A stretch of DNA of 64,000 bases. Source: Clostridia bacterium (GTDB lineage Bacteria; Bacillota; Clostridia; UMGS1883). The stretch lies in contig JAZUOX010000070.1 in the NCBI GenBank assembly GCA_045604905.1, positions 345-64,344 of the forward strand, given 5' to 3'. Below, in pieces: positions 3,354 through 56,772 of this stretch. Every line of letters starts with the position of its first letter. The first letter of the stretch is position 1. The notes below the pieces were generated by a model. That model was not told the DNA's origin. It saw only the letters and a program-made list of their open reading frames with translations, and searched no databases. A program made the position numbers and the translations under genes.

Positions 3354-3375
3354 TGTTTTTCGCCTCGCTTTTTAA

Positions 3376-26357: not shown

Positions 26358-26366
26358 GCAATACAA

Positions 26367-26398
26367 AAAGAGATTCGCTCGAAAGAGCGAATCTCTTT
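26367..26398 (-). terminator. Terminator of surface-protein paralog A
   Basis: AAAGAGATTCGCTC-GAAA-GAGCGAATCTCTTT. Confidence 0.9.
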
Positions 26399-26417
26399 AA
26401 TGGATTTTGCTTAATTA

Positions 26418-29400
26418 TCAGTCGTGAAGTTCTGCGTTAGCATATGCAATAGGTGTAATACCGTCTGCTTTTACTACGAAAAGCTTAACCTGATCGTAAG
26501 CAGCTGTCACCTTGGGGTTTTCTGTACTAAGGTTATTTACAACACCATTTTCTTCGTTGTAACGGTCACCTGTACCTGTCTTTGAATCCCAAGCTTCTGT
26601 TTCAGCAAAGTCAACAATACTTGTATCCACTAACTTACCACCAAGATACTTAGCAACAACGAGCTTTTCATCGCCTGCTGCACCTTCAATCCAAGCACCG
26701 TTGAGGCAATCTGCTGTACCGAGTGTAAGAGTTCTGATTGCTACGGGAGCAACAAGTCTTGTAAATGTCTTTGACTCTGCAATGCCGTTAGCAGTTGCTG
26801 TAACTGTCATTGTTACTTCCTTCGGTGATGTAACGTTGATAGCGGTTACAGTATCATTGCCAATCTTCCATGTGATTGCCGGACCGTCTGTTACATATGT
26901 ATAGCCTGCGGGATTTGAAGGCTTGAGTGCACCGTTATCAAGGTCTCTGTCGAAGAGTGTGCCTGAAATCCACCAAGACTTACCAATTGTCATAGCAGGA
27001 AGTGCACAGTTTGTAAGAACAGGCTTGTTATAAGCAGAAGCATAGTCGAAGAGTGCTGCATTAAGAGCTGCATTTACCTCTACTGCGTTCTGGTCAACAT
27101 ATTTGCTGAGTGAAATGTTATCAACCCAGATTTCGCCTGTACTGCTAAGCTCAAGTGAGTAACCGCGGATTGCGCTACCACCGTTAGCAGGAAGCTTCAT
27201 ATTAGCCTGAAGAATGGGAAGCTCGTTAAGAAGCTGACCATCAATGTAGATATACATTGTCTGTGAAAGTACGTTGTGGTCAACCATTACGTTAACCCAT
27301 TCGCCCTCACCCTTTTCGATAACGCTCTGAGGCATATCGAAGTAAAGTGCCTTGTTTGCATCAACTGCTGTGTTATTTCCATTTAAGTAAGCAACAGTAG
27401 AGTTAACCTGAACCTTGCCTGTGTTGTAGTTAAGGTAAATGTTTATACCGTTTGAACCGGCAATAGTCTTGAAGCTGATAGCACCTGAACTGCCGGCAGC
27501 ACCGTTGTGGGTATACTTAACGTCAGCCTTAAGAATTACTCTGTCCGTACAGGTTGCACCGTCAATACTAACGATAGAACCTGTTGCTTTGTGTCCTGTT
27601 CCTTCATTCTTAAGGTGAAGAACACTGCCGTGTGAAGCATCTTCATCTGCTACGATTTCAGCACTGCCTGTTGAAGTATCTGTTGAGAAGTCAATAGCCT
27701 TAATGAGAGTTGTTCCATCTGCAACTGTAACAGGTATTGTAACAGTAGCTTCTGCTTCGCCTGCAGAGATAGTAGCCGTCATATTAACAACTACATTTTC
27801 GCCTATAGAAGCAAGCTTTACTAATGTACCATCATTTGCAATGTAAGCTGTATTGCTTGATGCCCAGTCAACATTAACACCATATGTAGCAGGATCATAA
27901 TCTGCATAGCCGTTGTCAAGGTCAAGAACTGCACCTACTGCAGAGACTGTGCCAATGTTTGATTCTTCAACAAGAGTCTTGAAGAAGCTAACCTTTTCAG
28001 CATCTGGAAGTGTTGTAAGAACATCACTAGCAGGTCTTGTGATATAAAGCTTAATATCATCAGTATGGAAGAAGTTTACAGGTGTTGTAGGAGCAGTTGT
28101 ACTGTCCATATTGCTACGTCCTGTGAACTGGAATTTTGCTGATGTGATAGTTGCAGGAACTGCACTCTTTGTTTTATGAGTACCTACAAGCTTATCGTCA
28201 ATGTAGCACTTTACAGAGTAGCCTGTTGCTGATTCTGCATTTGCGTAGATTTCAAACTTGATTTTATACCATGTGTTAGCTGTGATGTTCTTATCGGCTC
28301 TTGCTGCGGATGGACCGTAGTAACCATCGCTGCCAAGATCATAGTCGTTATCATAAAGATACTGGTTGTAGTAAATGAATTCCGCCATTTCGTTACCGTT
28401 AAGGAGAAGTCCCCAGTTAGCAAGACCTGTTTTTACAGGAACTCTTACCTTAGCTTCGAAAACGAGTGTTTCGCCTGCTGCAAGAGCAGTGGGGTAAGAT
28501 GCGAATGTGTACTGGGGAGATGTACCGCTAGGCTGATAAGCACTGGCACAGATGCTGTAGTAGTTGTTACCATCTGCATCTTCGCCAACGTCCATTCTTT
28601 CCCAAGACTGGATTGAAGATGTCCAGCCTGTTGCACCAACAAAGCTTGTGCCGGGTGTAAGAGACTCTGCATCAGCAACCTCTGATACAAATGACTGTGT
28701 AAGGGGAAGTACATTTACAGTGTAGTTTACTACTACATCTTCTGCACCTTCTACAGAAAGGGTACCTGTAACAGTAGCCGTTGCAGCCTCAAACATAGGA
28801 CGCTTTATAGTACCGTCTTCTGCGACAACAGCGGGGTTAGTAGATGTCCATGCGATGCTAACACCGTCTATAAGCTCTTCAGCGGGAGCAAACTTAAGGT
28901 TTGTTGTAAGTGCTGCGAAGTTGCCACCATTTGCAACATATTCTGCTTCAAGATACTGTGAGTAGTATGCTGACTTTTCTGCAGGTGTTGCGTTAGCGAG
29001 AACAGTTTCTGCAGGAACAGACTGATATTCAACCCAGTTATCAAGTGTGTAGTTACCTGTTGCACTGTCAGATGCGTCTACGATTGTAATGTTTGTAATA
29101 ACAACCTTTGCTACATCGTCTACTGTGCAACCTGTCTCAAACTTACCAACTGCAAAAAGGTTGTTTGTTGCATTCAGGACACCGTTACCCCAGAAGTCAC
29201 CTGTCATAGGGTCATACTTGATTTCAACATTGTTCTTTCTGTATGCGCCCATCCAGTAGCCGCCCCAACCGCTTGAAGCAAGTCTTGAAACAGTCTGGCC
29301 TGCGATTGAGCCAACCTTAGTGCCTTCTGCGTTGTACTTAACAGCATCAATACGGATATCAATACCTGTTGCAACATTTGAAACAGAAGCTGAATCAAAT

Positions 29401-29921
29401 CTGATTGTGTAGATTTCATCAGATGTGGGAGCCTTGGGTGCATGATAAAGCCATACACGACCGCTGCCGTCTGTGTGGTTCACAGAGAACACACCGTCAG
29501 CAACAGCACTTCCACCGTTGTTTGCAGAGCCTATGTACCATTCGGGATAGTTTACAAATGTGTGTTTGTTTGAAGCTGTAGCTGTAGTAGCTTCTGCTAT
29601 AGCGAAATCTTCACTATAGAGTACATTAGTTGTCTGTGCCTTTACTGTTACTTCAACAGCTTCACCGCCATTGATTGTAAGTGATACAGTTGCATCCTCG
29701 AAAAGGGGACGCTTTACAGTACCGTCTGTTGCGATAACATCTGTGTTTGAAGAAGATGTAATCGTATTTTCGCCAAGCACAAGATTGCTTGTAACGAAAT
29801 TTGCAGGCTGACCATTAGCGATAGCTGAAAAGTCAACCGCTGTTCCCTCTGCCATAACTGTGAATGAGCACATTGAGAGTACCATTAACACAGAAAGGCA
29901 AAGTGCCATGAGTTTTTTCAT
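26418..29921 (-). CDS. Large secreted surface protein, paralog A (1167 aa; Ig-like and LamG/ConA-like modules); no promoter found in the current orientation
   Basis: Sec signal peptide; repeated W.S+N..V...DGT..RP Ig-like motifs alternating with beta-sandwich domains (Y.YIDG); strong codon bias; AGGAGG RBS. Confidence 0.85.
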   Translation of the reverse strand: MKKLMALCLSVLMVLSMCSFTVMAEGTAVDFSAIANGQPANFVTSNLVLGENTITSSSNTDVIATDGTVKRPLFEDATVSLTINGGEAVEVTVKAQTTNVLYSEDFAIAEATTATASNKHTFVNYPEWYIGSANNGGSAVADGVFSVNHTDGSGRVWLYHAPKAPTSDEIYTIRFDSASVSNVATGIDIRIDAVKYNAEGTKVGSIAGQTVSRLASSGWGGYWMGAYRKNNVEIKYDPMTGDFWGNGVLNATNNLFAVGKFETGCTVDDVAKVVITNITIVDASDSATGNYTLDNWVEYQSVPAETVLANATPAEKSAYYSQYLEAEYVANGGNFAALTTNLKFAPAEELIDGVSIAWTSTNPAVVAEDGTIKRPMFEAATATVTGTLSVEGAEDVVVNYTVNVLPLTQSFVSEVADAESLTPGTSFVGATGWTSSIQSWERMDVGEDADGNNYYSICASAYQPSGTSPQYTFASYPTALAAGETLVFEAKVRVPVKTGLANWGLLLNGNEMAEFIYYNQYLYDNDYDLGSDGYYGPSAARADKNITANTWYKIKFEIYANAESATGYSVKCYIDDKLVGTHKTKSAVPATITSAKFQFTGRSNMDSTTAPTTPVNFFHTDDIKLYITRPASDVLTTLPDAEKVSFFKTLVEESNIGTVSAVGAVLDLDNGYADYDPATYGVNVDWASSNTAYIANDGTLVKLASIGENVVVNMTATISAGEAEATVTIPVTVADGTTLIKAIDFSTDTSTGSAEIVADEDASHGSVLHLKNEGTGHKATGSIVSIDGATCTDRVILKADVKYTHNGAAGSSGAISFKTIAGSNGINIYLNYNTGKVQVNSTVAYLNGNNTAVDANKALYFDMPQSVIEKGEGEWVNVMVDHNVLSQTMYIYIDGQLLNELPILQANMKLPANGGSAIRGYSLELSSTGEIWVDNISLSKYVDQNAVEVNAALNAALFDYASAYNKPVLTNCALPAMTIGKSWWISGTLFDRDLDNGALKPSNPAGYTYVTDGPAITWKIGNDTVTAINVTSPKEVTMTVTATANGIAESKTFTRLVAPVAIRTLTLGTADCLNGAWIEGAAGDEKLVVAKYLGGKLVDTSIVDFAETEAWDSKTGTGDRYNEENGVVNNLSTENPKVTAAYDQVKLFVVKADGITPIAYANAELHD

Positions 29922-29998
29922 AGTGTTTTCCTCCTAAAAAATATTTTTATATTTAATTAATTTAATTTCGGTAATAATATTAATAGGAAGAAACTCCA

Positions 29999-30026
29999 CT
30001 ACCACATAATTTGAATTATGTGGTAG
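29999..30026. repeat. Left recombination site (IRL), dif-like 11-6-11
   Basis: CTACCACATAA-TTTGAA-TTATGTGGTAG with perfect arms. Confidence 0.92.
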
Positions 30027-30088
30027 AAACAGATTGACTTTTGAAAAAAGTATGATTTACTTATACAAAAAGGGAAGGAAATATATTT

Positions 30089-30928
30089 ATGAATAAAATA
30101 ACTGATAATTTAGTGCAAAATTTCTGCCAAAAACTTTTTTGCGAGGAAAAATCAACTGTTACAATTGAAAAATATGTGCGTGATGTTCGAGCCTTTCAGA
30201 AATGGTTATCCGGTAAACCGGTAAAAAAAGAAACAGTTATTGTATATAAAAACTATCTCACGGAAAATTATGCCCCGAAAAGTGTAAACTCAATGTTATC
30301 ATCGCTTAACAGTTTCTTTGATTTTTTGAACTGGAATGATTGTCGTGTCAAAACGCTGAAAATCCAGCGACAGATTTTTGCGGACAAAGAAAAAGAACTT
30401 ACCAAAAAAGAGTATGGCAAGCTCCTTTCTGCAGCACTTGAAAATGGAAATCATAAAATGTATCTTCTTATGCAGACAATTTGTTCAACAGGCATCAGAG
30501 TGTCAGAACTTAAATATATTACAGTAGGGGCAGTAAAAGCGCGCAGGGCAATAATCAACTGTAAAGGAAAAATGCGTGTTGTTATTCTTCCCGAGCAACT
30601 GTGCAAAATACTTGTGCAATATATTAAGAAAGAAAGACTCATAAAAGGAAGTGTTTTTGTTACAAAAAGCGGAAATCCTCTTGATCGGTCAAATATCTGG
30701 AAAATGTTAAAAACTTTGTGCGAAAGTGCCGGTGTGTCAAAGGAAAAAGTTTTCCCTCACAATTTCAGGCATCTTTTTGCAAGGACGTTTTATTCAATGC
30801 AGAAAGATATTGTCCGCCTTGCGGATATTTTAGGACATTCCAGCATTAATACTACTAGGATTTATACTATTGAATCCGGTGCAGAACACAGGAAACAGCT
30901 TCAAATGCTTGGTCTTTTACGGTGCTAA
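30089..30928 (+). CDS. Tyrosine recombinase (XerC/D-like invertase)
   Basis: Catalytic residues present: TGIRVSEL (R), KGK (K), HNFRH (HxxR), LGHSS (H), TRIYT (Y); SAM-like N-terminus. Confidence 0.95.
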   Translation: MNKITDNLVQNFCQKLFCEEKSTVTIEKYVRDVRAFQKWLSGKPVKKETVIVYKNYLTENYAPKSVNSMLSSLNSFFDFLNWNDCRVKTLKIQRQIFADKEKELTKKEYGKLLSAALENGNHKMYLLMQTICSTGIRVSELKYITVGAVKARRAIINCKGKMRVVILPEQLCKILVQYIKKERLIKGSVFVTKSGNPLDRSNIWKMLKTLCESAGVSKEKVFPHNFRHLFARTFYSMQKDIVRLADILGHSSINTTRIYTIESGAEHRKQLQMLGLLRC

Positions 30929-30989
30929 CCATTTTTAAAAAACGGACAAAATTTATTTAATACTTTTGTTAAAAATATACATCAAAGTA

Positions 30990-31018
30990 TTGACAAATCC
31001 GAAAAATAGAGGTATACT
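30990..31018 (+). promoter_or_regulatory. Strong sigmaA promoter inside the invertible segment, pointing outward through IRR
   Basis: TTGACA(30990-30995)-17bp-TATACT(31013-31018) with an AT-rich upstream region. Confidence 0.85.
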
Positions 31019-31048
31019 TGGATTGTATAATTATAGGTAGGAGTATCA

Positions 31049-31076
31049 CTACCACATAATTCAAATTATGTGGGAG
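31049..31076. repeat. Right recombination site (IRR), inverted relative to IRL
   Basis: CTACCACATAA-TTCAAA-TTATGTGGGAG; spacer TTCAAA is the reverse complement of TTTGAA. Confidence 0.92.
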
Positions 31077-31160
31077 GGGAGTTTCTTCTTTCCACATTTG
31101 CACTTTGAAAATTTAATTAAATTAATTATATATAAATATTTTATTTAGGAGGAAAACACT

Positions 31161-34100
31161 ATGAAAAAACTCATGGCACTTTGCCTTTCTGTGTTAATGG
31201 TACTTTCAATGTGCTCATTCACAGTTATGGCAGAGGGAACAGCGGTTGACTTTTCAGCAATTGCTAACGGTCAGCCTGCAAATTTCGTTACAGGCAATCT
31301 CGTGCTTGGCGAAAATACGATTACATCTTCTAATGAAGCAGTAATCGCTCTTGATGGTACTGTAAAGCGTCCCCTTTTCGAGGATGCTACTGTATCACTC
31401 ACAATCAACGGCGGTGAAGCTGTTGAAGTAACAGTAAAGGCAAAGACAACTAAGGTTCTTTACGCTAATGACTTTAGCTCAGCAGTAGGCAGTGAATGGA
31501 AGCTTAATGCTGTAGGCACAAATGTTCCTTCTGCAGTTGCAGACGGAAAGCTTAATGTTGTTATCGGTGCTACAACAAGTGGACGTACTAACATCACATA
31601 CTCAATGCCTTCAACTATTGATTACACCAAGCCTGTAAGCGTTAAGTTTGATGTTGACAATTTCACAGACCTTGCTTTTTCAGGTGCAGACATCAGACTT
31701 AACGGTGGTGTTTACAACGCTGACGGAACAATCTATAAGGCTTTTCCCTCCGGAATGTTTGCAAGAGTTAATACTACAAGCGGATTTTCAAGCAGCTACT
31801 TTACAGCAGGTAAGAGCATTGATTTCAAGTACGACCCGTTGACAGGTCAGGTATGGACACTTGCAACAGGTGCGCTTTCAGCAAATACACTTGTAGATTT
31901 TGCAATGTCTCAGGGAACAATCCCCGAAGGCGGGGCTGTACTTCCCGAGGGAGGCTATGTTAAAATCACATCTCTCTACTTCACCAATGCAACAGACGAT
32001 TGTACAGCTACATTTGATGTAGATGACTTTATTGTATATCAGGAAGTTTCCGATGAAGAAGCTCTTGCTAACGCAACACCTGCAGAACTTTTGGCTCACT
32101 ATTCATATCTTCTTGATGAAGAGTATGTTGAAAATGGTGGAAACCTTGATGCACTTACAACTAACCTTAAGTTTACTTCCGACGCGGCTCTTCCCGGAGG
32201 TGTAAGCCTTACATGGACATCTACAAATGCTGCTATTGCTTCTGATGGTACTGTTAAGCGTCCCATACTTGAGGCTGCAACAGCTACAATCACAGGTACA
32301 CTCGTTTGTGGTGAAGAAAGCATTTCCAAATCATACAATGCAACAATTCTTCCCCTTACAATTGCAGGACAGAGCGAGATCGTTGATTTCGATAGCTACG
32401 GTCTTGCAAATGGCGAAACTGTTTCAGCTACCGGTTGGAAAGTGGATAGTGCAACCGTAACAAACGTTGTTGAAAACGGCAATAGCTATGGACAGCTCAA
32501 TTCAATTGCAGGCTATAAAGAACAAGCAGCTGTTTATACTTTCCAGAATGCTCCCACAACAACTGAACGGTATTATGTAATGAGCTTTAAGTATAAGAAT
32601 ATAAGCCTTCCCGCTACAGTTATGAATATCGGTTTGAGGCTTAACGGAAAATACATCGGAGCCTTTGCTCAAAGAGCTGCTGCATCACAGTTCCACGCTA
32701 TTAAATGGAGTGGTTCATTAAGTGGTGGTGTTAACGGTGGTGGTGTATTTTATGGCAGCAATGCCTCTTTCTTTACATTACCCAGTGGATTTGTTGAAAT
32801 GAAAATAGTTGTCGATACAGTTGAAGAAATGGTTCATTACTATGTTGGAAATAGCGAAACTCCGGTTGCATCGACAGGCTATGTAGACTATAAAGACAAT
32901 GGAATTGCCGTAGGTACAAGCTTTAATAACATCACATCAGCACAGCTTTATTTCTCAGCGCGTGCAACTGAGAAGATACCTGCTACAGTTGCCATAGATG
33001 ACGTTAAGTTCTATGCACCTCAGTCGATTGAAAGCGTTCTTCCTACACTTTCAGATGCAGAAAAGGTTAATTACTTCAAAAACCTTGTTCAGAATTCTGA
33101 AATCGGCACAATCAAAAGAGTTGGTGATAAGCTTACTCTCGCTACAACTTTTGCAGAAGCTGATCCTGCTGCATCCGGTGTTGCAATTAACTGGAAATCA
33201 GATAAAGCAGAATACGTTTCAAACGACGGCACATTGATTAAACTTGCTCCCATTGCTTCAAACCTTACAGCTAATGTAACAGCTACAATCACAGCAGGCA
33301 GTGTAAGCGATACAGTTTCATTTGCTGTTCCCGTTGCAGATGGAACAACTCTCATTAAGGCTATCGATTTCTCAGACGCTACTACCGTAACAGGCAGTGC
33401 TGAAATCGTGACAGATGAAGATGCTGCACACGGTAGTGTTATTCACCTTAAAAATGAAGGAACAGGTCACAAAGCAACAGGTTCAATCACATCTCTTAAC
33501 GGTGCAGATGTGTTTGACAGAGTTATTCTTACCGGTGATGTTAAGTATTCACACAACGATGGCACAAGTTCTTACGGTGGTATCAGTTTCAAGACAATTG
33601 CCGGTTCGAACGGTATAAACGTTTACTTCAACTACAATACAAACAAAATCCAAGTATGGACAACTATAGCAGAAGTCAATGCGAGTGGTACCAGTGTTTC
33701 TGTTGCGAACGGTGGTATACTGTACTTCGATATGCCTCAGAGCGTTATCGAAAAGGGTGAAGGCGAATGGGTTAACGTAATGGTTGACCACAACGTACTT
33801 TCACAGACAATGTACATCTATATTGATGGTCAGCTTATTAACGAGCTTCCCATTCTTCAGGCTAATATGAAGCTTCCTGATAACGGTGGCGCTGCAATCC
33901 GAGGTTACTCACTTGAGCTTAGCAGCACAGGCGAAATCTGGGCTGATAATATTTCTTTCAGAAAATACAATGACCAAAACGCAGCAGAAGTAAATGCGGC
34001 TCTTAATGCAGCACTCTTTGACTTCGCATCAACTTATAATAAGCCCGTTCTTACAAACGGCGCACTTCCCGCAATGACAATTGGTAAGTCTTGGTGGATT

Positions 34101-34649
34101 TCAGGCACACTCTTCAACAGAGACCTTGATAACGGTGCACTCAAGCCTTCAAATCCCGCAGGCTACACATATGTAACAGACGGCCCTGCAATCACATGGA
34201 AGATTGGCAATGATACTGTAACCGCTATTAACGTTACATCACCGAAGGAAGTAACAATGACAGTTACAGCAACAGCTAACGGCATTACAGAGTCAAAGAC
34301 CTTCACAAGACTTGTTGCTCCCGTAGCAATCCGCGACCTCGCTCTTGGTACAGCTGATTGCCTCAACGGTGCATGGATTGAAGGTGCAACAGGTAATGAA
34401 AAGTTCATCGTAGCTACATACCTCGATGAAAAACTCGTATCTGTTGACCTTATAGACTTTACTGAAACAGAAGCTTGGGATTCAAAGACAGGTACAGGCG
34501 ATCGCTACAACGAAACGATCGGTGTTGTAAATAACCTTAGTACAGAAAACCCCAAGGTGACAGCTGCTTACGATCAGATTAAGATTTTCGTAGTTGATGC
34601 AGACGGCATCACACCTCTTGCATATGCTAACGCAGATCTTCACGACTGA
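31161..34649 (+). CDS. Large secreted surface protein, paralog B (1162 aa); predicted ON in the current orientation
   Basis: First ~95 aa and last ~300 aa nearly identical to paralog A; central domains differ. Confidence 0.85.
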   Translation: MKKLMALCLSVLMVLSMCSFTVMAEGTAVDFSAIANGQPANFVTGNLVLGENTITSSNEAVIALDGTVKRPLFEDATVSLTINGGEAVEVTVKAKTTKVLYANDFSSAVGSEWKLNAVGTNVPSAVADGKLNVVIGATTSGRTNITYSMPSTIDYTKPVSVKFDVDNFTDLAFSGADIRLNGGVYNADGTIYKAFPSGMFARVNTTSGFSSSYFTAGKSIDFKYDPLTGQVWTLATGALSANTLVDFAMSQGTIPEGGAVLPEGGYVKITSLYFTNATDDCTATFDVDDFIVYQEVSDEEALANATPAELLAHYSYLLDEEYVENGGNLDALTTNLKFTSDAALPGGVSLTWTSTNAAIASDGTVKRPILEAATATITGTLVCGEESISKSYNATILPLTIAGQSEIVDFDSYGLANGETVSATGWKVDSATVTNVVENGNSYGQLNSIAGYKEQAAVYTFQNAPTTTERYYVMSFKYKNISLPATVMNIGLRLNGKYIGAFAQRAAASQFHAIKWSGSLSGGVNGGGVFYGSNASFFTLPSGFVEMKIVVDTVEEMVHYYVGNSETPVASTGYVDYKDNGIAVGTSFNNITSAQLYFSARATEKIPATVAIDDVKFYAPQSIESVLPTLSDAEKVNYFKNLVQNSEIGTIKRVGDKLTLATTFAEADPAASGVAINWKSDKAEYVSNDGTLIKLAPIASNLTANVTATITAGSVSDTVSFAVPVADGTTLIKAIDFSDATTVTGSAEIVTDEDAAHGSVIHLKNEGTGHKATGSITSLNGADVFDRVILTGDVKYSHNDGTSSYGGISFKTIAGSNGINVYFNYNTNKIQVWTTIAEVNASGTSVSVANGGILYFDMPQSVIEKGEGEWVNVMVDHNVLSQTMYIYIDGQLINELPILQANMKLPDNGGAAIRGYSLELSSTGEIWADNISFRKYNDQNAAEVNAALNAALFDFASTYNKPVLTNGALPAMTIGKSWWISGTLFNRDLDNGALKPSNPAGYTYVTDGPAITWKIGNDTVTAINVTSPKEVTMTVTATANGITESKTFTRLVAPVAIRDLALGTADCLNGAWIEGATGNEKFIVATYLDEKLVSVDLIDFTETEAWDSKTGTGDRYNETIGVVNNLSTENPKVTAAYDQIKIFVVDADGITPLAYANADLHD

Positions 34650-34668
34650 TAATTAAGCAAAATCCATT

Positions 34669-34700
34669 AAAGAGATTCGCCCGATCGGGCGAATCTCTTT
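34669..34700 (+). terminator. Terminator of paralog B
   Basis: AAAGAGATTCGCCC-GATC-GGGCGAATCTCTTT, homologous to the paralog A terminator. Confidence 0.9.
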
Positions 34701-34776
34701 TGTCATACTGAAACTTTCAAATGCAATAACAAACGGGGCGAATTTTACAAAAACGTAAAAACACCCCGTTTAAATA

Positions 34777-36180
34777 TTATCTCAGATATTCATCTATTGC
34801 TTTTGCCGCTGTTTTACCTGCCCCCATTGCGGAAATTACCGTTGCGGCACCAGTTACAGCATCACCGCCTGCATACACACCTTTGCGTGATGTAAGCCCG
34901 TATTCATTCACTACGATACCGCCCTTTTTATTAACCTCAAGCCCGTCAGTTGTAGACTTAATAAGAGGATTTGGTGATGTACCGATTGACATAATCACCG
35001 TATCAACCGAAATTTCAAACTCACTGCCCTTTATTTCTACAGGTCTGCGCCTGCCTCTTTCATCAGGCTCGCCAAGTTCCATTTTCACGCACTTCATACT
35101 CTTTACAAAGCCGTTCCTTTCATCACGGGGGTTATCGGGGTTGTTATATCCGATAATTTCCACAGGTGATGTAAGAAATCTGAACTCTACCCCCTCTTCC
35201 ACAGCGTGCTCAACCTCCTCGCGTCTTGCCGGAAGCTCATCCATTGAGCGACGATATACAACATATACCTTTTCCGCGCCAAGACGAAGTGCTGTTCTCG
35301 CAGCATCCATAGCAACATTACCGCCACCAACTACTGCCACTTTGCCGCCTCTCATAATAGGGGTATCGGGGGATTGCCCATAAGCTTTCATAAGATTGCT
35401 TCTTGTAAGATATTCATTTGCAGAATATACACCTTTAAGCGCTTCTCCCGGAATATTCATAAAAACGGGAAGACCTGCTCCCGAACCGATAAATACAGCC
35501 TCAAAACCCATATCAAAAAGTTCATCCACTGAGAGAGTTTTTCCAATGACAACATTAGTCTGTATATCAACTCCGAGAGCCTGCAATGACTGAACCTCTT
35601 TTTTAACGATTGCTTTCGGCAGTCTGAATTCCGGAATACCATACACAAGCACACCGCCTGCAGTGTGAAGAGCTTCAAACACAGTTACGCTGTAGCCCTT
35701 TTTCGCAAGGTCACCTGCACAGGTAAGCCCCGACGGTCCTGAGCCGACAACGGCTACTTTGTGCCCGTTACTTTCAGGTTTTTCGGGAGGAGCTGTCACA
35801 AAGGCATTGTGCCAGTCTGCCACAAATCTTTCAAGTCTTCCGATACCTACGGATTCGCCCTTTATACCGCGGACGCACTTTGCCTCACACTGGTTTTCCT
35901 GAGGACACACCCTGCCGCACACTGCAGGAAGAGACGAGGATTTCGTTATAATCTGATAGGCAGCTTCAAAATCGCCCTCTTTTATTTTTCCGATAAATTC
36001 TGGAATGTGAATATTAACAGGGCAGCCTGTTACACAGGGCATATTTTTACAGTTAAGGCAACGCATCGCCTCCGCCACTGCTACATCTTCGCTATATCCA
36101 AGTGCAACCTCCCGGAAATTGCATGCTCTCGCGGATGGATCCTGCACAGGCATTTCGTTTCTTTTGGATAAATCTGCCAT
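34777..36180 (-). CDS. nfnB: NfnB/SudA-like large subunit (often annotated NADPH-dependent glutamate synthase)
   Basis: RCLNC..PC..GCP, CGRVCPQE, GSGPSG, GGGNVAMD, GGDAVTG; paired with an NfnA-like gene. Confidence 0.88.
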   Translation of the reverse strand: MADLSKRNEMPVQDPSARACNFREVALGYSEDVAVAEAMRCLNCKNMPCVTGCPVNIHIPEFIGKIKEGDFEAAYQIITKSSSLPAVCGRVCPQENQCEAKCVRGIKGESVGIGRLERFVADWHNAFVTAPPEKPESNGHKVAVVGSGPSGLTCAGDLAKKGYSVTVFEALHTAGGVLVYGIPEFRLPKAIVKKEVQSLQALGVDIQTNVVIGKTLSVDELFDMGFEAVFIGSGAGLPVFMNIPGEALKGVYSANEYLTRSNLMKAYGQSPDTPIMRGGKVAVVGGGNVAMDAARTALRLGAEKVYVVYRRSMDELPARREEVEHAVEEGVEFRFLTSPVEIIGYNNPDNPRDERNGFVKSMKCVKMELGEPDERGRRRPVEIKGSEFEISVDTVIMSIGTSPNPLIKSTTDGLEVNKKGGIVVNEYGLTSRKGVYAGGDAVTGAATVISAMGAGKTAAKAIDEYLR

Positions 36181-37034
36181 CACTGCACCTCCTTATTATA
36201 GAGATTGCAGGTGTTTTCGTATGCGTGGTGCTCAAAATCGGCATACATTCTGCCTCTTGACATTGCCTCGTCAAAATCAACCTCGTACCCGTTAAAATCC
36301 GGGCCGTCAACACAAGCAAACTTTATAACTTTTTCACCGTTTCGGTTAAGAGTAAGCCTACATCCGCCACACATACCGGTGCCGTCAATCATAATAGGAT
36401 TCATGGAAACCGTAACAGGCACACCGTAAGGTTTTGCTGCGAGTGTAACAAACTTCATCATAATAAGAGGACCGATAGTGATAATCATATCAAACTTTTC
36501 CCCGTCCTCGAGCATCTTTTTGAGAGGAATTGTTACATTACCTTCCTCTCCATAACTACCGTCGTCTGTCATAACAAAAAGGCGGTCAGAACACTCACGG
36601 AATTCGTCCTCGAGAATAACTATGTCTTTATTTCTGAAACCGATTATTGATGTAACCTCTGCGCCCATCTCGTGAAGCTTCTCGGCAATGGGCATAGCAA
36701 TAGCACAGCCTACGCCACCACCGACGATACATACTTTTTTAAGCCCGTCAAGGTGTGTCGCAGTACCGAGAGGCCCTACAAAATCCTCAATAAAATCGCC
36801 TTCGTTTTTCTCTGCAAGCTTTCTTGTTGTCGAGCCTACAATCTGGAAAATGATTCTGACGCTGCCCTTGTCCGAATCTGTTCCGGCAACAGTGAGGGGT
36901 ATCCTCTCTCCATCTTCATCAACTCTGAGAATGATGAATTGCCCCGGCTCGGCTTTTTTTGCAACAAGGGGTGCTTCTATATTAAGTTCCGTTACAGAAG
37001 GGTTGTGCACCTTCTTTGATAAAATCTTGTACAT
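36180..37034 (-). CDS. nfnA: NfnA/SudB-like FAD/NAD-binding 2Fe-2S subunit
   Basis: GQFIILR..GERIPLT, GGGVG, MIDGTGMCGGCR, ACVDGPDF. Confidence 0.9.
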   Translation of the reverse strand: MYKILSKKVHNPSVTELNIEAPLVAKKAEPGQFIILRVDEDGERIPLTVAGTDSDKGSVRIIFQIVGSTTRKLAEKNEGDFIEDFVGPLGTATHLDGLKKVCIVGGGVGCAIAMPIAEKLHEMGAEVTSIIGFRNKDIVILEDEFRECSDRLFVMTDDGSYGEEGNVTIPLKKMLEDGEKFDMIITIGPLIMMKFVTLAAKPYGVPVTVSMNPIMIDGTGMCGGCRLTLNRNGEKVIKFACVDGPDFNGYEVDFDEAMSRGRMYADFEHHAYENTCNLYNKEVQ

Positions 37035-37066
37035 TTTAATGACTCCAATTTAATAGGTATTTATTT

Positions 37067-37095
37067 ATTATACATCATATCTCTTTGAAAATCAA
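37067..37095 (-). promoter_or_regulatory. nfnAB promoter
   Basis: TTGATT-17-TATAAT. Confidence 0.6.
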
Positions 37096-37202
37096 TATAT
37101 CTGACGACAAAAACAGTGCATAAAATCAATAATTATGCGGTTTTGATTAATATTTGAGTCAAGTAATCATCCCTCAATGTAACCGTTTGGTTACTTGATT
37201 AT

Positions 37203-37231
37203 ATTATAATATATGATACAAGATTTGTCAA
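37203..37231 (-). promoter_or_regulatory. Perfect-consensus sigmaA promoter upstream of a hairpin (candidate sRNA or leader)
   Basis: TTGACA-17-TATAAT. Confidence 0.7.
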
Positions 37232-37262
37232 CATCAAACTCAGCTCAATTTATATTCCATAT

Positions 37263-37448
37263 AAAAGCAGGCTGAGCCTGCATTCATATCGCACTCTCAG
37301 TTTGTGCAAACATATATTCATGCGTCTTAATTTAACGCAAATTCCTATACGGTAGCAACAAAAAAGAAGCGTGCCGCTTCACCCATGTTGCGCACATACA
37401 AAGTGCAAACATAGTTTCACGCATATTAATTTACGCAAATTCCTATAC
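37263..37448. repeat. Two tandem copies (R4, R5) of the dispersed ~90-bp repeat
   Basis: GCAGGC-TGA-GCCTGC...ACGCAAATTCCTATAC, then GAAGCG-TGC-CGCTTC...ACGCAAATTCCTATAC. Confidence 0.85.
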
Positions 37449-37452
37449 AGCA

Positions 37453-37484
37453 AAAAATCCTCCCGAGTTTTCGGGAGGATTTTT
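37453..37484 (-). terminator. Terminator of paralog C
   Basis: AAAAATCCTCCCGA-GTTT-TCGGGAGGATTTTT. Confidence 0.9.
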
Positions 37485-37497
37485 AATTATTCAGTGA

Positions 37498-40400
37498 TTA
37501 CCAGTCAAGCATACCGTCTCTGAACGCTACGGGAACAATGCCGCCTTCATTCATTACGAAAATCTTAACTTCTTCGATTACATCGCTTGTACCGGGATGA
37601 GCAACGCCTGTACCGCGGAGGATACCTGTTGCAGGATCGTAAGACTTAGAGTTTGTCTCGTTGATTTCTTTATTTGCAAGTTCTGCAAGGTCGAAAATCT
37701 GCACCCAATCAGTCTTTCTGTTTTCAAGGTATGTTACAATGATAACCTTTTCGTTACCTGTTGCACCATCAAGCCATACACCGTTAAGGCAAGAAGCTGT
37801 ACCCTGTGCAAGACCACGGATTGCTACTGGAGCAACCTTTCTTTCAACTGTGAAAGATTCTGTGATGCCGTTTGCTTCAGCAGTAACTGTGAAGTCAACA
37901 ACACCTACCTTGTCAACATTGATTGCAGTAACTTCTTCACCGTCAATTGCGTATGTAAGAGTGGGACCGTCTGTTACAAACTTATATGTTGAAGCGTTTT
38001 CAGGCTTGATTGAGAATGTTGACTTAGTTGTGCCGTCACCATTATCAGTAACTGTTTCGTTAACATCTCTCTTGTATCTGTCGCTTGCAATCCAGCTCTT
38101 ACCGATTGTCATAGCGGGAAGCTCGCAGTTTGTAAGAACTGTTCTGTATTCTTCTGATGCGTAAAGAACAAGTGCTGCGTTAAGAGCTGCATTTACTTCA
38201 ACTGCATCTGTGTTAGCGTATTTCTTAAGAGATACGTTGTCAACCCACATTTCACCTGCAAGGCTAAGCTCGATTGAGTAGCCACGAATTGCACTACCGC
38301 CGTTTCCGCCAAGATCCATATTAGCCTGAAGAACAGGAACGGGATTTACAACTTCACCGTCAAGATATACCTGATATGTCTGTGAAACTGCGTTGTGGTC
38401 AACTGTAAGTCTAACCCATTCGCCTTCGCCCTTTTCAAGAACGCTTGCGGGCATAGGATAGCTTACTGTCTTATACTTGTTTACATTAAGACCTGTTGCA
38501 GCACCGTTAGCTTCTGTCTTTGTTGTGATAAGAGAAACTGTACCTGCTTTGTAGTTAAGACCGACCTGGATACCGTTCTGTCCTGCATAAGTCTTAACAC
38601 TGAAGCCACCGTAAGAATTTTCTACATCACCGTGCACGTACTTAATGTCAGCGTCAAATACTACTCTGTCACCTCTGCCGCCACCTGTTATGTTTGAGAT
38701 AGTACCTGAAGCCTTGTGGCCTGTGCCTTCATGCTTAAGGTGGAGAGCCTTACCGGTGCCGTCTGCAATAATTTCTGCACTAGCGAGTGCACCTGCTTCA
38801 AGGTCATCAAAGTTAACTTCCTTAACAAGCACTATACCGTCTGTAAGAGTAACATCTACAGAAGCTGTAGCTTCTTCAAGACCTGCCGCGATTGTAGCTG
38901 TCATAGTAACAGTCTTTGTTGTGCCGATTGGTGCAAGAGTCTTAACTACACCATTCTCTCCGATATATGCATCGTCGCTTGTTCCCCATGTGATATTTAC
39001 ACCAAGAGAACCAAGGTCGTAACCTGCATAAGAATCAGCAAGACCAAGGTTCTGACCTGCTGTCACATTTGCAGGAATTTCTGTAGCTTCTATAAGTTCC
39101 TTAAAGAAGTTAATCTTACCTGCGTCGTCAAGAGTAGCAAGAACTGAATCTATTGACTGTGTTGTGTAAACCTGAACATCGTCTGTATCGAAGAAGTATA
39201 CAGGTGTTGTAGGCTCAGTTTTGCTGTCCATATTGCTACGACCCTTAAGGTAGAAGCTTGCAGATGTGATTTCTTCAGGAACAGCATTAGCTGTAGAATG
39301 TGTACCTACAAGCTGGCCATCAAGGTAACACTTTACTGTCCAACCTTTTGTTGCAGCTGCATCTTCAGTAATTTCAAATTTTATGTTATACCAGGTATTA
39401 GCTGCGATATTCTTATCAGTTCTTGCCGCACCTGCACCGTAGTAATCATCATTACCGAGGTCATAGTCGTTATCGTAAAGATACTGGTTATAGTAAATGA
39501 ACTCAGCCATTTCCTTACCATTAAGCTGAAGTCCCCAGTTAGCAGTACCGCCCTTTACGGGAACTCTTACCTTAGCGTCAAATACAAGTGTGTCGCCCTC
39601 ACCTACTGCGGGAACAGCCTTGAATGTGTATTTGGGGAAAGAACCGCTAGGCTCATAAGAACTTGCACAAATGCTGAAGTACTTATTGCCGTCAGCGTCT
39701 TCCTTAACTTCCATAGCTTCCCAATCCTTGATTTCTGCAGGTGTCCAGCCGTCTGCACCAACAAAGCTGCCTACTTCAAGGTTTTCTGCATCAAGAACTT
39801 CTGTTGCAGATGTCATTGAAAGAGGAAGAACGTTAACAGTATATTCCTTAACGATGTCTTCTGCACCTTCAACTGAAACTGTACCTGTAAGTGTAACAGT
39901 CTTAGTTTCGAAGAAAGGACGTGTAACTGTACCGTCAAGTGCGATAACAGCTTCGTCACTTGATTCCCATGTGATAGAAGCGCCTGCTATAAGGTCTTCT
40001 TCAGCTGTAAGCTTAAGGTTTGTTGTAAGAGCCGCAAAATCGCCACCGTTTGCAACGTAATCTTCTTCAAGATACTGTGCATAGTAAAGTGCCTGCTGTG
40101 CAGGTGTTGCAGATGCAAGAACATCTTCTGCAGCAACATCCTGATATACTGCGAAGTTATCAATGCTGTATGTACCTGTAGCAGCATCTGAAGCGTCTAC
40201 AAAGCAGAAAGATGTAATAGCAACCTTTGCTACATCATCAGCTGTATATCCTTCTTTAATTGTAGCGTTATCAGTGATAAGGTTTTTGGCTGCGAGAACA
40301 CCGTTACCCCAGAATTCACCTGTCATAGGATCATACTTAATTGTAACGCCTGCCTTCTTGTAGCCGCCCATCCAGTAGCCACCCCAACCGGCTGCAGCAA

Positions 40401-41034
40401 GTCTTGCAACTGTACCACCGCTGTTAATGCTACCAACGATTGTGCCTTCTGCATCGTAAAGAGAACCACCTAAACGGATATCAATACCAACTGCAACGTC
40501 AGCAACTTCTGTTGAATCAAACTGAATTGTAACAGGCTCATCTGTTACGGGAGCAGGAACTGCAGCATAAAGCCATACGCGGCCTTCACCGTCAGTATGG
40601 TTTGCTACCATTCTACCATCTGCAACTGTAACATTGTTATTTGCAGAGCCAATGTACCATTCGCTGTAATCAGCAAATGTGTGCTTATTAGAAGCCTCAG
40701 CAACAGGTTCATTATCAATTGCGAAGTCTTCTGCATAAAGAGCCTCAACTGTCTGAGCCTTTACTGTTACTTCAATAGCTTCACCGCCATCGATTGTGAT
40801 CTGTACTGCAGCATCCTCGAAAAGGGGACGTGTAACAGTACCGTCAAGAGCGATAACATTTTCATCAGAAGATGTTATTGCATAACCACCGAGATCAAGA
40901 TCATCAGTTACAAAGTTTACCGGCTGACCGTTTGCAATTTCTGCAAAGTCAACCGTACTCTCTGCCATTACAGAAAATGAGCACATTGAAAGCGCCATTA
41001 ACATTGCAAGGCAGATTGCCATGAGTTTTCTCAT
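37498..41034 (-). CDS. Large secreted surface protein, paralog C (1178 aa)
   Basis: Start MRKLMAICL after AGGAGG; colinear with A and B; central domains match A (WYIGSANN, GWGGYWMG, EMAEFIYYNQYLYDNDYDLG). Confidence 0.85.
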   Translation of the reverse strand: MRKLMAICLAMLMALSMCSFSVMAESTVDFAEIANGQPVNFVTDDLDLGGYAITSSDENVIALDGTVTRPLFEDAAVQITIDGGEAIEVTVKAQTVEALYAEDFAIDNEPVAEASNKHTFADYSEWYIGSANNNVTVADGRMVANHTDGEGRVWLYAAVPAPVTDEPVTIQFDSTEVADVAVGIDIRLGGSLYDAEGTIVGSINSGGTVARLAAAGWGGYWMGGYKKAGVTIKYDPMTGEFWGNGVLAAKNLITDNATIKEGYTADDVAKVAITSFCFVDASDAATGTYSIDNFAVYQDVAAEDVLASATPAQQALYYAQYLEEDYVANGGDFAALTTNLKLTAEEDLIAGASITWESSDEAVIALDGTVTRPFFETKTVTLTGTVSVEGAEDIVKEYTVNVLPLSMTSATEVLDAENLEVGSFVGADGWTPAEIKDWEAMEVKEDADGNKYFSICASSYEPSGSFPKYTFKAVPAVGEGDTLVFDAKVRVPVKGGTANWGLQLNGKEMAEFIYYNQYLYDNDYDLGNDDYYGAGAARTDKNIAANTWYNIKFEITEDAAATKGWTVKCYLDGQLVGTHSTANAVPEEITSASFYLKGRSNMDSKTEPTTPVYFFDTDDVQVYTTQSIDSVLATLDDAGKINFFKELIEATEIPANVTAGQNLGLADSYAGYDLGSLGVNITWGTSDDAYIGENGVVKTLAPIGTTKTVTMTATIAAGLEEATASVDVTLTDGIVLVKEVNFDDLEAGALASAEIIADGTGKALHLKHEGTGHKASGTISNITGGGRGDRVVFDADIKYVHGDVENSYGGFSVKTYAGQNGIQVGLNYKAGTVSLITTKTEANGAATGLNVNKYKTVSYPMPASVLEKGEGEWVRLTVDHNAVSQTYQVYLDGEVVNPVPVLQANMDLGGNGGSAIRGYSIELSLAGEMWVDNVSLKKYANTDAVEVNAALNAALVLYASEEYRTVLTNCELPAMTIGKSWIASDRYKRDVNETVTDNGDGTTKSTFSIKPENASTYKFVTDGPTLTYAIDGEEVTAINVDKVGVVDFTVTAEANGITESFTVERKVAPVAIRGLAQGTASCLNGVWLDGATGNEKVIIVTYLENRKTDWVQIFDLAELANKEINETNSKSYDPATGILRGTGVAHPGTSDVIEEVKIFVMNEGGIVPVAFRDGMLDW

Positions 41035-44020: not shown

Positions 44021-44045
44021 ATTTTTCACCCTTGCCATTCCTTTC

Positions 44046-45851: not shown

Positions 45852-45857
45852 CGTTGC

Positions 45858-48788: not shown

Positions 48789-48822
48789 AAATTTACCTCC
48801 TTTTCAGATTTTCTGCCAGTAA

Positions 48823-50415: not shown

Positions 50416-50768
50416 AACAATTCCTCCTTATTGGATATATAAAAATTTATAATTATAATCAACTTATTGAGGTCAGCAGTTTCTTCAAAAACTACACCTA
50501 CCCACTATAACTATACATCTAATATGATAACATATGTTTTAATATATAACAATACGTTTTTAGACTAAAATTATATGTTTTTAGACATTTTTAACGTTTC
50601 GAGCACTCTTATAATATAATTTTAACATAAAATCGCGTAAATTCAAATGGAAATATCCCTTTTGTTATATGTAAATTTTCCCTATTTCAGTATATTTTTT
50701 TAATTCCAATGCTGTCCCTTGTTGCACTACACAATTTACCCCAACTATTGAAAAATTTGAGGCAAAAA

Positions 50769-50800
50769 AATTTGACGCAGGATTTTTCCTGCGTCAAATT
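50769..50800 (-). terminator. Terminator of the ABC operon
   Basis: AATTTGACGCAGGA-TTTT-TCCTGCGTCAAATT. Confidence 0.88.
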
Positions 50801-50814
50801 ATATTTATTTTTTA

Positions 50815-52542: not shown

Positions 52543-52574
52543 TTTCTTTCTTCCTTTCTTTTTTTTGTTTTATG

Positions 52575-53459
52575 TTATCCTTTAACTGCACCGATCATTA
52601 CGCCCTTAGCAAAGTATTTCTGCAAGAAGGGATATACGCAAAGAATCGGAACAGTGGAAACCACAATTATTGCATACTTCAAAGTTTCACTTACAGCCGC
52701 AGACTCTTCACCAAGACCGATGTCACCTACCATAGCAGTTGTATCGTTCTTGATAACAGTGTTACGAAGGAAAAGCTGCAACGGATACTTTTCAGCATCC
52801 TCAATGTAGATAGAAGCACCGAACCATGAATTCCAGTGACCTACAAGGTAGTAAAGAACTATAACTGCAAGAGTCGCCTTTGAAAGAGGAACCATTATCT
52901 GAGAAAGAATTCTGAAATGACCTGCACCGTCAATTCTTGCTGCCTCATACAAACTTTCGGGAATTGCATTAAAGGCTGTTCTTAAAACTATCATATTATA
53001 TGTACCAATAGCACCGGGAAGTATCAAAGCCCAGAAGGTATTATAAATACCGAGGTGCTGTACAACCAAGTATGAAGGAACAAGGCCACCGCCAAAGTAC
53101 ATAGTAACAAGAATAAGCTTCATCATAATTCCCTTAAGAAGGAATTCTTTTCTAGTAAGAACATATGCTGCAAATGTAGTCATAAGCATATTGACAATCA
53201 ATGACACAACACAGATGTAGATAGTATTACCAAAGCATCTGAAAAGCTGACCGTCTTCAAAGACAAGCTTAAATGCATCAACATTCGCTCTTAAAGGAAG
53301 TAAAAGCACACCTGTATGAGCCTGAAGGTCACTACCGTTACTGAAAGCTGCCATAAACACATGCCAAAGAGGATAAAGTGTTACTACACAAAGGAGTGAA
53401 AGCACAATTACATTCACAACCTGGAAAATTTTTACGCCTGTTGAATCTTTAATTTTCAT
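52575..53459 (-). CDS. Carbohydrate ABC transporter permease (LplC-like)
   Basis: EAARIDGAG EAA motif, YPFLQKYFAKG. Confidence 0.95.
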   Translation of the reverse strand: MKIKDSTGVKIFQVVNVIVLSLLCVVTLYPLWHVFMAAFSNGSDLQAHTGVLLLPLRANVDAFKLVFEDGQLFRCFGNTIYICVVSLIVNMLMTTFAAYVLTRKEFLLKGIMMKLILVTMYFGGGLVPSYLVVQHLGIYNTFWALILPGAIGTYNMIVLRTAFNAIPESLYEAARIDGAGHFRILSQIMVPLSKATLAVIVLYYLVGHWNSWFGASIYIEDAEKYPLQLFLRNTVIKNDTTAMVGDIGLGEESAAVSETLKYAIIVVSTVPILCVYPFLQKYFAKGVMIGAVKG

Positions 53460-53478
53460 AGTTTATTATCCTCCTTTC

Positions 53479-54432: not shown

Positions 54433-54498
54433 AACACATCCCCTTCTGTCGTTATGTCCCATTTTACACGGTGACAAATAATATTATCATATGTTACT

Positions 54499-56756: not shown

Positions 56757-56772
56757 AAGGTTTACCTCCTGC

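Follow-up and report, generated by a model that had tools for sequence, protein, structure and literature searches.

The analysed window comprises 64,000 nucleotides (nt) of contig JAZUOX010000070.1 (positions 345 to 64,344), part of a metagenome-assembled genome (MAG) of a Clostridia bacterium that is designated here G000 (81% complete, 75 contigs). Positions 26,418 to 41,034 of the window carry three paralogous genes, A, B and C, encoding long modular proteins, each with an N-terminal signal peptide. A and B are arranged head to head on either side of a putative invertible promoter switch, and the three genes form a mosaic, in which A and B share their ends while the central domains of A resemble those of C. 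This pattern reflects recombination, not selection alone.

The A/B locus, its putative promoter switch and the encoded proteins

Gene A (26418-29921, minus strand) is an open reading frame for 1167 amino acids (aa). The predicted protein consists of a signal peptide, three units of a helical linker, an aBig_2 immunoglobulin-like (Ig) module and a concanavalin A (ConA)-like jelly-roll domain, followed by a fourth Ig module (Ig4) and a C-terminal beta domain. Gene B (31161-34649, plus strand; 1162 aa) has the same scaffold, with a domain 1 of type b and a domain 2 of a type seen nowhere else. Gene C (37498-41034, minus strand; 1178 aa from an MRKL start) is an older full-length paralog, with domains 1 and 2 of type a on a backbone of its own.

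The two genes of the head-to-head pair are separated by two recombination sites that form a 40-nt inverted repeat (95% identity). The left site (29987-30026) has the palindromic core ACCACATAAT-TTGA-ATTATGTGGT, and the right site (31049-31088) carries the core with the complementary spacer TCAA, which puts the sites in opposite orientations. The segment between them encodes an Xer-like tyrosine recombinase of 279 aa (30089-30928, plus strand), identified by a Phage_integrase match (E 2.8e-27) and an N-terminal SAM-like domain; NCBIfam Xer models match it with E 1e-33 to 1e-43, all below the model cut-offs. A predicted outward promoter, TTGACA-17-TATACT (30990-31018, plus strand), agrees with the consensus at 11 of 12 positions and faces B. 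A second, weak promoter-like match (30080-30108, minus strand; 9/12) lies inside the element near the left site, is directed towards A and overlaps the start of the recombinase gene; it is probably due to chance in AT-rich DNA. Within assembled G000 the core site occurs in two copies only, both at the A/B switch (up to 3 mismatches allowed), and is found neither at C nor at a further paralog, D. Gene C is preceded by a promoter-like site of its own (41150-41122; 10/12 positions), in keeping with the preliminary description of this DNA, which had assigned C a separate promoter and no recombination site.

The family to which these genes belong was found in five of the 39 genomes of the genus (E <= 1e-40), which comprises uncultured gut Oscillospiraceae-like Clostridia, and in none of 16 genomes from two other families of the order (E <= 1e-30), with the proviso that incomplete MAGs may conceal copies. 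All five family-bearing genomes, namely G000 and the relatives G014, G047, G052 and G054, contain the locus. Its sites, recombinase and promoter are conserved in each case (the window, L020, L033, L034 and L035), with spacers TTGC/GCAA in the other four loci. The promoter lies about 32 nt inside one core site and is directed outward in all five; it faces B in the window and the gene in the A position (A-slot) in the remaining four. With feoB as the reference, G000 and G014 carry the element in opposite orientations, which indicates inversion in the course of evolution, not switching within a population. One joint in run X2 connects positions 30000 and 31097 on opposite strands; one of its sides spans 32 nt and it derives from a related strain, so it is at most a hint. 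Inversion of the promoter would lead to either/or expression of A or B.

Gene order around the element differs between the relatives. In G014 it reads C-type gene, gltA pair, B-slot gene, recombinase, A-slot gene, feoB; in G052 it is feoB, A-slot gene, recombinase, B-slot gene, C-type gene, SLH protein; and in G054 gltA pair, A-slot gene, recombinase, B-slot gene, C-type gene, SLH protein. The G047 locus consists of the A-slot gene and recombinase, and has no B-slot gene past the right site. There, unrelated DNA follows the right core site (L035 = G047:C28, 4786-5672), and judging from this arrangement the same switch would act as a one-sided ON/OFF control of the A-slot gene. In G000 and G014 the gltA-like pair separates B from C, and in G054 it is located upstream of the A-slot gene; hence either the A-switch-B unit or the gltA pair has moved as a block. 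A contig from another gut metagenome (run X1, record 1) contains the 3′ end of a family gene, 90 nt, and then the 5′ arm of a second family gene, which places two members in tandem, not head to head, in that organism.

The A-slot gene type is conserved in three of the five genomes (G000, G014 and G054). The B-slot gene varies strongly between species: it encodes 1162 aa in G000 and 1201 aa, with other domain types, in G014, while the B-slot genes of G054 (L033:9673-12126) and G052 (L034:9207-11678) encode 817-823 aa and lack domain 2 and Ig3. The sequences of these short genes are consistent with loss of one jelly-roll plus Ig module via recombination between internal Ig repeats. Their 3′ ends are different and resemble that of paralog D, so constant anchoring is not general. 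An NCBIfam match of the G054 B-slot protein to ‘mosaic adhesive trimer’ was disregarded (E 0.033). Gene C has positional orthologues in G014 and G054 and close C-type counterparts elsewhere in G047 and G052 (63-92% aa identity).

The sole Pfam match of A, B and C is aBig_2 (‘atrophied bacterial Ig domain’, PF20578), with scores of 89.4, 77.5 and 91.3 bits, respectively, against a gathering cut-off of 27; in A it covers three stretches (E 1.4e-25). No catalytic domain was recognised in any of the three proteins by Pfam, NCBIfam, PDB profile or Foldseek searches, and NCBIfam assigned no family to A or B. The best PDB match is the Geobacillus arabinanase AbnA, in the aBig_2 region only (profile E 6.6e-7). 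Foldseek with the whole model also ranked AbnA first and beyond it returned generic jelly-roll matches with low template modelling scores. In the PDB profile search the aBig_2 region alone was matched, Laminin G matches being not significant (E ~0.8); one relative carries a precomputed Laminin_G_3 match.

The AlphaFold model of A, built from an alignment of 21 sequences, has a confidence score (pLDDT) of 83. It comprises a signal helix, Ig1, beta-sandwich domain 1 (residues ~128-301), a helical linker with Ig2, domain 2 (~409-628), a helical linker with Ig3, domain 3 (~737-941), a helix with Ig4, and the C-terminal beta domain. Profile comparison of the modules with hhalign showed that Ig1, Ig2 and Ig3 are mutually related (probability 98-99%), that domains 2 and 3 are weakly related (66%), and that domains 1 and 2 have no significant relation. 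Modelled alone, domain 2 of A (pLDDT 89.6) forms a ConA-like jelly-roll. Its top structural match is the accessory domain of sialidase BT_1020 (Z 16.2, root-mean-square deviation 3.4, 183 residues aligned), followed by the sialic-acid-binding lectin domain of the V. cholerae sialidase (Z 13.6); further matches include Akkermansia sialidase accessory domains, alginate lyases, GH16 glucanases and calreticulin. Domain 2 is therefore predicted to have a ConA-like lectin fold, a statement about the fold alone that does not imply sugar binding. Taken with the genomic context, the fold suggests that A, B and C may be exposed glycan-binding or adhesive proteins.

Mosaic structure and exchange of domains

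DNA identity between the three genes was calculated in sliding 100-nt windows, with nt positions given along gene A. A and B are 84-99% identical from about -55 to +290, with 75% in the final window, which enters domain 1. At nt 290-850, and again at nt 1150-1840, identity falls to 27-57%, with values of 27-50% in the cores of the domains; at nt 2570-3500 it is mostly 83-98%, with a dip to 69-77% at nt 3183-3283. Where A/B identity is low, A and C are 60-85% identical, with a maximum of 81-85% near nt 1446-1546. At the protein level, A and C share 59% of residues in domain 1 and 67% in domain 2, compared with 31% and 27% for A and B, which bears out the earlier observation that the first two domains of A resemble those of C and not those of B.

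The shared ends of A and B appear as two pairs of inverted repeats. At the 5′ side these are 29751-29967/31115-31331 (217 nt, 95%) and 29617-29753/31326-31462 (137 nt, 86%); they make up the 5′ arm of A (29616-29967, minus strand), which contains the ribosome-binding site (RBS), signal peptide and Ig1. At the 3′ side they are 26639-27348/33719-34428 (710 nt, 90%) and 26366-26617/34450-34701 (252 nt, 90%), the latter spanning both hairpin terminators (26367-26398 in A, 34669-34700 in B). The 3′ arm of A (26366-27348, minus strand) thus extends over the end of domain 3, Ig4, the C-terminal domain and the terminator, and is 90% identical to that of B (33719-34701, plus strand). These ends had been described as near-identical. 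Their close similarity is evident (84-99% over the 5′ arm, about 90% over the 3′ arm), but the longest exact A/B run is 58 nt and synonymous divergence (dS) reaches 0.27-0.48, so near-identity overstates the case.

A triplet test on 1590 informative sites (727 supporting AB, 601 AC and 262 BC) gave, by maximum chi-square, a best two-breakpoint segment at A nt 306-1884, with an AB share of 0.29 within it and 0.78 outside (chi-square 322). None of 200 permutations reached this value, the largest being 21.1. Of the exact A/B runs of at least 20 nt, six fall within nt 1-285, 14 within nt 2197-3432 and one lies in Ig2, whereas A/C and B/C have one each, of 20-21 nt (20 nt for A/C). It follows that A and B still offer a substrate for homologous exchange and that C does not.

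For divergence estimates and trees the alignment was cut at A residues 102, 298, 408, 626, 733, 941 and 1057 into segments S1-S8. A-B dS is 0.28, 1.98, 0.70, 2.74, 0.90, 0.46, 0.27 and 0.48 from S1 to S8, that is, 0.28 in the 5′ arm and 0.27-0.48 in the 3′ arm, while A-C dS is 0.73-1.31 in all eight segments. Nonsynonymous divergence (dN) in the A/B arms is low (0.03-0.16). Since A-B dS follows the mosaic, and since the non-coding leader and terminator belong to the arms, recombination and not selection alone accounts for the pattern. GC and GC3 content per segment are uniform (41-46% GC), without a compositional sign of foreign DNA. A short patch in domain 2 of A (28362-28377, minus strand; A nt 1545-1560, ~16 nt) contains six consecutive A-specific differences that all match C-type genes; as a post hoc observation it gives a weak hint of micro-conversion.

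Homology of the paired 5′ arms extends about 350-400 nt outside the core sites in all four genomes with both slots and ends at the Ig1/domain 1 border. Arm dS within genomes is 0.00-0.45. In the DNA tree of S1, the G052 arms are sisters (100/99), the G054 arms, which form a 357-nt exact inverted repeat, are identical, and the G000 arms share a clade (93/94) with the G047 A-slot gene and the G054 pair. The 5′ arms thus group within a genome rather than by slot in three of the four genomes. The homogenisation of inverted A/B arms proposed in the preliminary description is in this way supported for the 5′ arms.

The family was extended by 12 relatives from short ENA/Logan contigs (two protein searches) to 30 proteins in total. 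Among JGI metagenome contigs, a search with the family alignment yielded one partial gene, L042, which lacks a core site upstream, and a search with B yielded no relative. GTDB genome contigs returned the same MAGs and nothing further, and tblastn with A against phages and plasmids gave no match. Domain types were defined for each segment of the 30 proteins as single-linkage clusters at >=55% aa identity. Segments S1-S8 form 1, 8, 2, 7, 6, 8, 4 and 6 clusters, respectively; scaffold segments thus have one or two types and jelly-roll domains many.

Domain types assort independently across the 30 proteins. Taken together, domain 1, domain 2 and C-terminus occur in 14 different combinations among the 26 complete proteins. 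All four combinations exist of domain 1 types c and f with domain 2 types a and b, as do all four of domain 1 types a and b with C-terminus types a and b. A key case is the A-slot gene of G047, which is 97, 30, 93, 96, 83, 93, 91 and 95% identical to A (aa, S1-S8). It differs from A in domain 1 only, and its domain 1 is 83% identical to that of B. Domain 1 of B (31464-32036, plus strand; type b) is 80-83% identical to its counterparts in the A-slot genes of G052 and G047, and 71-74% identical to those of P0004 and P0005, which combine a B-type domain 1 with an A/C-type domain 2 on a C-type backbone; on A-type and C-type backbones of other genomes together, B-type domain 1 thus occurs at 71-83% aa identity. 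In proteins P0006 to P0010, two additional domain 2 types are paired with domain 1 types different from these. Domain 2 of B (32361-33014, plus strand) is at most 37% identical to the other 23 proteins compared and forms its own cluster among the 30.

Segment trees conflict accordingly. The 3′ third of B is nested in the A-slot clade, as (G054,(B,(A,G047))) with supports of 95-98, while C and its orthologues form their own clade in every segment tree. Approximately unbiased (AU) tests were performed on 22-24 rows of 24 proteins. The domain 1 data reject a group of A and the G047 gene (p 6.5e-56) and a group of A, B and the G047 and G054 genes (p 8.9e-7; 22 rows, the G014 gene being omitted because it is identical to A in domain 1). 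The domain 2 data reject the clade of domain 1 type b (p 4.6e-6) and, again, the group of A, B and the G047 and G054 genes (p 1.7e-4). The data from domain 3 to the C-terminus reject a group of A and the G014 and G047 genes (p 1.1e-34). Phylogenies of adjacent segments are therefore significantly incongruent, as in a mosaic family generated by recombination. The checks named in the preliminary description (sliding identity, a recombination test, per-domain trees and alleles across genomes) agree that identity is not uniform along the genes and that the trees are incongruent, and its view that exposed domains are shuffled on a constant scaffold is upheld by the conflicting trees, the AU rejections and the 14 combinations.

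Gene A also contains tracts whose dS to another species lies far below the genomic background (0.00-0.12 versus 0.51-1.09). DNA flanking the locus is 86% identical between G000 and G014 (5.6 kb), 83-85% for G047, 76-80% for G052 and 80% for G054, and background dS between G000 and G014 is 0.51 for feoB, 0.86 for gltA, 1.05 for a 284-aa gene and 1.09 for the recombinase. Nevertheless, A and the G014 A-slot gene, its positional orthologue, share an exact run of 740 nt (A nt 253-992). Past this run, identity is 94-100% as far as about nt 1440 and 87-99% as far as about nt 1850, after which it falls to 47-82%. Their dS in S1-S8 is 0.33, 0.00, 0.02, 0.12, 0.40, 0.99, 1.34 and 0.49. Domain 1 of A (29028-29615, minus strand; type a) is 100% identical to its G014 counterpart in protein sequence, and domain 2 (28044-28697, minus strand; type a) is 96-97% identical to those of G014 and G047. 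The block from domain 1 through Ig2 to domain 2 thus appears to have been exchanged very recently with the G014 lineage.

A different partner is indicated for the rest of the gene. In comparison with the G047 gene, A is 90-98% identical at nt 1-240, 31-51% in domain 1, and 78-100% (mostly >90%) at nt 870-3500. Their dS is 0.10-0.19 in S3, S4 and S6-S8 and 0.36 in S5, against 1.38 for the adjacent recombinases of G000 and G047. These values point to recent exchange of A outside its centre with the G047 lineage. Domain 1 of the G047 gene is 82-100% identical to that of B in DNA, including a 134-nt exact run common to both. Logan contigs from two further animal gut metagenome studies (X1 record 5 and X2 record 10) contain A-type Ig2 and domain 2 fused to a B-type domain 1, the junction lying at the domain 1/linker boundary (A nt ~879-945). 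Those breakpoints that could be placed are at the Ig1/domain 1 border (nt ~245-300) and the domain 1/linker border (nt ~870-950).

Proposed mechanism and alternative explanations

We consider it probable that the mosaic arose from homogenisation of the arms around the switch combined with independent cassette exchange of domains 1 and 2, including exchange between species. The element between the head-to-head genes A and B, about 1.06 kb long and composed of core site, Xer-like tyrosine recombinase, outward promoter and core site, would be invertible. The 5′ arms (RBS, signal peptide and Ig1; ~350-400 nt) would be kept alike within a genome by gene conversion or crossing-over, and in G000 the 3′ ~1 kb of A and B may be kept alike as well. 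Domains 1 and 2 would each be exchanged on their own, through homologous recombination with the conserved linker/Ig modules as anchors. Gene A would then be positionally orthologous to the A-slot genes of relatives such as G014 and G054, with a centre recently exchanged with the G014 lineage, and B would combine A-like ends with a type b domain 1 and a private domain 2. The suggestion that B carries imported domains fits this scheme, given that its domain 1 type occurs on other backbones and its 3′ third is nested in the A-slot clade. Gene C would be an old, separately promoted paralog that has lost its recombination substrate with A and B and is not a recent donor to A. On the basis of fold and context, cassette exchange may alter the ligand or antigen specificity of an exposed lectin-like protein. 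The switch, too, may affect binding or antigenicity with export and anchoring unchanged, as the preliminary description proposed.

Several points weigh against this reading. G000, like every genome with which it was compared, is a MAG, so some of the near-identity between species could result from mis-binning or cross-assembly; the G047 copy of the locus is carried by a contig of 9 kb, from a bin with 7% contamination. Of the 24 sequencing runs listed, none of which is recorded as RNA, 19 contain part of the region, the best share of the region's words being 0.13, and at this level (<=13%) neither the junctions of the source strain itself nor inversion within its population were seen. The junctions of B domain 2 lack independent assembly support; four aligned runs gave no cover over this domain (~32548-33400), which says nothing about its absence. 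The trees were quick ones, and the AU groups were picked after the trees of other segments were known. The G014 5′ arms are not sisters and do not group in the S1 DNA tree. Finally, the A/B arm dS of 0.27-0.48 means that homogenisation was not very recent, and the likeness of the arms could stem from one older duplication followed by replacement of the centre.

One alternative regards the locus as a nested ‘domain shufflon’, in which every module common to A and B (the 5′ arm, the linkers of Ig2 and Ig3, and the 3′ arm) would act as an inverted repeat, a crossover in which inverts the intervening DNA. A crossover in the 5′ arm would flip the promoter, one in Ig2 would swap domain 1 reciprocally, and one in Ig3 would swap domains 1 and 2. 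The allele with type b domain 1 and type a domain 2 (G047 and the contigs of the two other studies) is exactly what an Ig2 crossover between one A-like and one B-like gene would be expected to yield. If this were true, a clone could make combinatorial lectin proteins without loss of information, on top of the promoter switch. We regard this scheme as rather unlikely.

Less likely again is an assembly or binning artefact, in which the constant ends or the cross-species block would stem from chimeric contigs or the collapse of repeats. The sequences used are without exception from MAGs or short Logan/ENA contigs, the records of two relatives apparently come from one project, an exact run of 740 nt is unusual between genomes otherwise 86% identical, and the provenance of the G047 copy, noted above, is open to the same suspicion. 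However, exact runs no longer than 58 nt (A/B) and 20 nt (A/C) preclude a mutual collapse of A, B and C at large k. The junction of domain 1a, Ig2 and domain 2a recurs in G014, that of domain 2a with the 3′ part in G047, and that of domain 1b, Ig2 and domain 2a both in G047 and in contigs from two other studies. Moreover, identity between A and the G014 gene fades in patches (100, 98, 87, 99, 85 and 50%) with no sharp edge, and the recombinase on the G047 contig is very unlike that of G000 (dS 1.38).

The preliminary description had also envisaged A as a chimera of B and C. A recent origin of this kind, with ends from B and centre from C joined within G000, is very improbable. Domains 1 and 2 of A are indeed of the same type as those of C (59% and 67% aa identity), and the C-like 16-nt patch in domain 2 and the A/C identity peak of 81-85% at nt 1446-1546 could be read in the same sense. 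Against this, A-C dS is 0.73-1.31 in all eight segments, the centre included, and the sole exact A/C run of at least 20 nt measures 20 nt. A-C divergence is thus old and uniform, which leaves the chimera unsupported. The centre of A is instead 96-100% identical to its positional orthologue in G014, and the C orthologues keep to their own clade. An explanation without any recombination, in which purifying selection on export and anchoring preserves the ends and diversifying selection drives rapid divergence of the exposed domains, finds some support in the conservation of the scaffold in all 30 relatives (one cluster in S1, two in S3) and in the low arm dN of 0.03-0.16, but is scarcely credible, as dS shows the same mosaic (0.27-0.48 versus 2-2.7), the non-coding 5′ leader and terminator belong to the similar arms, per-domain trees conflict strongly, all four domain-type combinations occur, and dS to another species falls to 0.00-0.12 against a background of 0.5-1.1.

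Further family members and comparison with known systems

Additional members of the family are encoded in G000. Paralog D (G000:C6; L021:2364-5858) has 1164 aa and is 41% identical to A over residues 1-743. More distant aBig_2 members of 1070-1474 aa are found in the window (56773-60639) and on G000 contigs C1, C33, C49 and C75; the core recombination site is absent from all these further aBig_2 members in G000. The window region 41246-60639 encodes three proteins with SLH matches, one strong (E 3.4e-38) and two below the Pfam gathering score. It also contains genes for an ABC sugar transporter (a solute-binding protein with two permeases), for a further aBig_2 protein and for a GH88 unsaturated glucuronyl hydrolase. 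In overall content it resembles a Gram-positive gene cluster for the cell surface and the utilisation of glycans.

Phase-variable surface proteins of several bacteria share features with the A/B locus. CwpV of C. difficile is controlled by an ON/OFF switch on one gene, its recombinase RecV is encoded elsewhere, and the protein reportedly confers phase-variable phage resistance. The A/B element, in contrast, holds recombinase and promoter between two alternative genes, and the variable parts of the proteins are lectin-like jelly-rolls assorting independently at two positions. According to PMC3080850, the likeness lies in a phase-variable Clostridia surface protein for which a tyrosine recombinase flips a short DNA switch, and in a conserved end of CwpV combined with a functional domain that occurs in several antigenically distinct types between strains.

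In the Vpma system of M. agalactiae and the Vsp system of M. bovis, inversion by Xer1 moves a unique promoter between alternative surface-protein genes (PMC2268961). The same source describes an Xer-like tyrosine recombinase within the locus, a conserved 5′ untranslated region (UTR) and signal peptide, and unique and shared blocks in the mature proteins, all of which recall A and B. It also reports a recombination site in the 5′ UTR of every Vpma member, whole genes being shuffled to a fixed promoter, and lipoproteins with repeats, not lectin-like modules (PMC2268961). By comparison, G000 (81% complete) has only two sites, the promoter itself would flip, and C and D stand outside the system.

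In the sapA system of C. fetus, one promoter on an invertible segment lies between opposed homologues with a conserved 5′ region, resulting in either/or expression; inversion there relies on RecA and the shared 5′ ends, and no dedicated recombinase is known to take part. Opposed homologues with conserved 5′ arms likewise flank the promoter segment in all four genomes with both slots of the present locus. The latter differs in having a dedicated tyrosine recombinase and short palindromic core sites, with long 5′ homology outside the sites. In protein PAB of Finegoldia magna and in pneumococcal PspA/PspC, binding modules have been exchanged between genes or species at conserved junctions. Those genes are not known to be paired around an invertible promoter, whereas the modules of A, B and C are ConA-like jelly-rolls between aBig_2 Ig domains in an uncultured genus of gut Clostridia. 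With arabinanase AbnA the proteins share the aBig_2 Ig linker modules, and they differ from it in that no catalytic domain was recognised in them.

No description of the family or of this type of locus was found in Creative Commons-licensed PubMed Central and bioRxiv literature, and PMC11892184 uses none of the words bidirectional, divergent, toggle, ‘either orientation’ or ‘both flanking’. The locus brings together three layers of surface variation, namely a putative recombinase-driven either/or promoter switch, concerted evolution of the arms and cassette exchange across species diverged by about 15%, and loci of this kind may be hot spots for gene flow among gut Clostridia. Its defined module borders and natural domain types provide material for testing binding, with host or dietary glycans, other cells and phage as candidate partners. 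Each layer has precedents in the systems compared here and no new category is needed; the locus joins their features in a new arrangement and with a new protein family.

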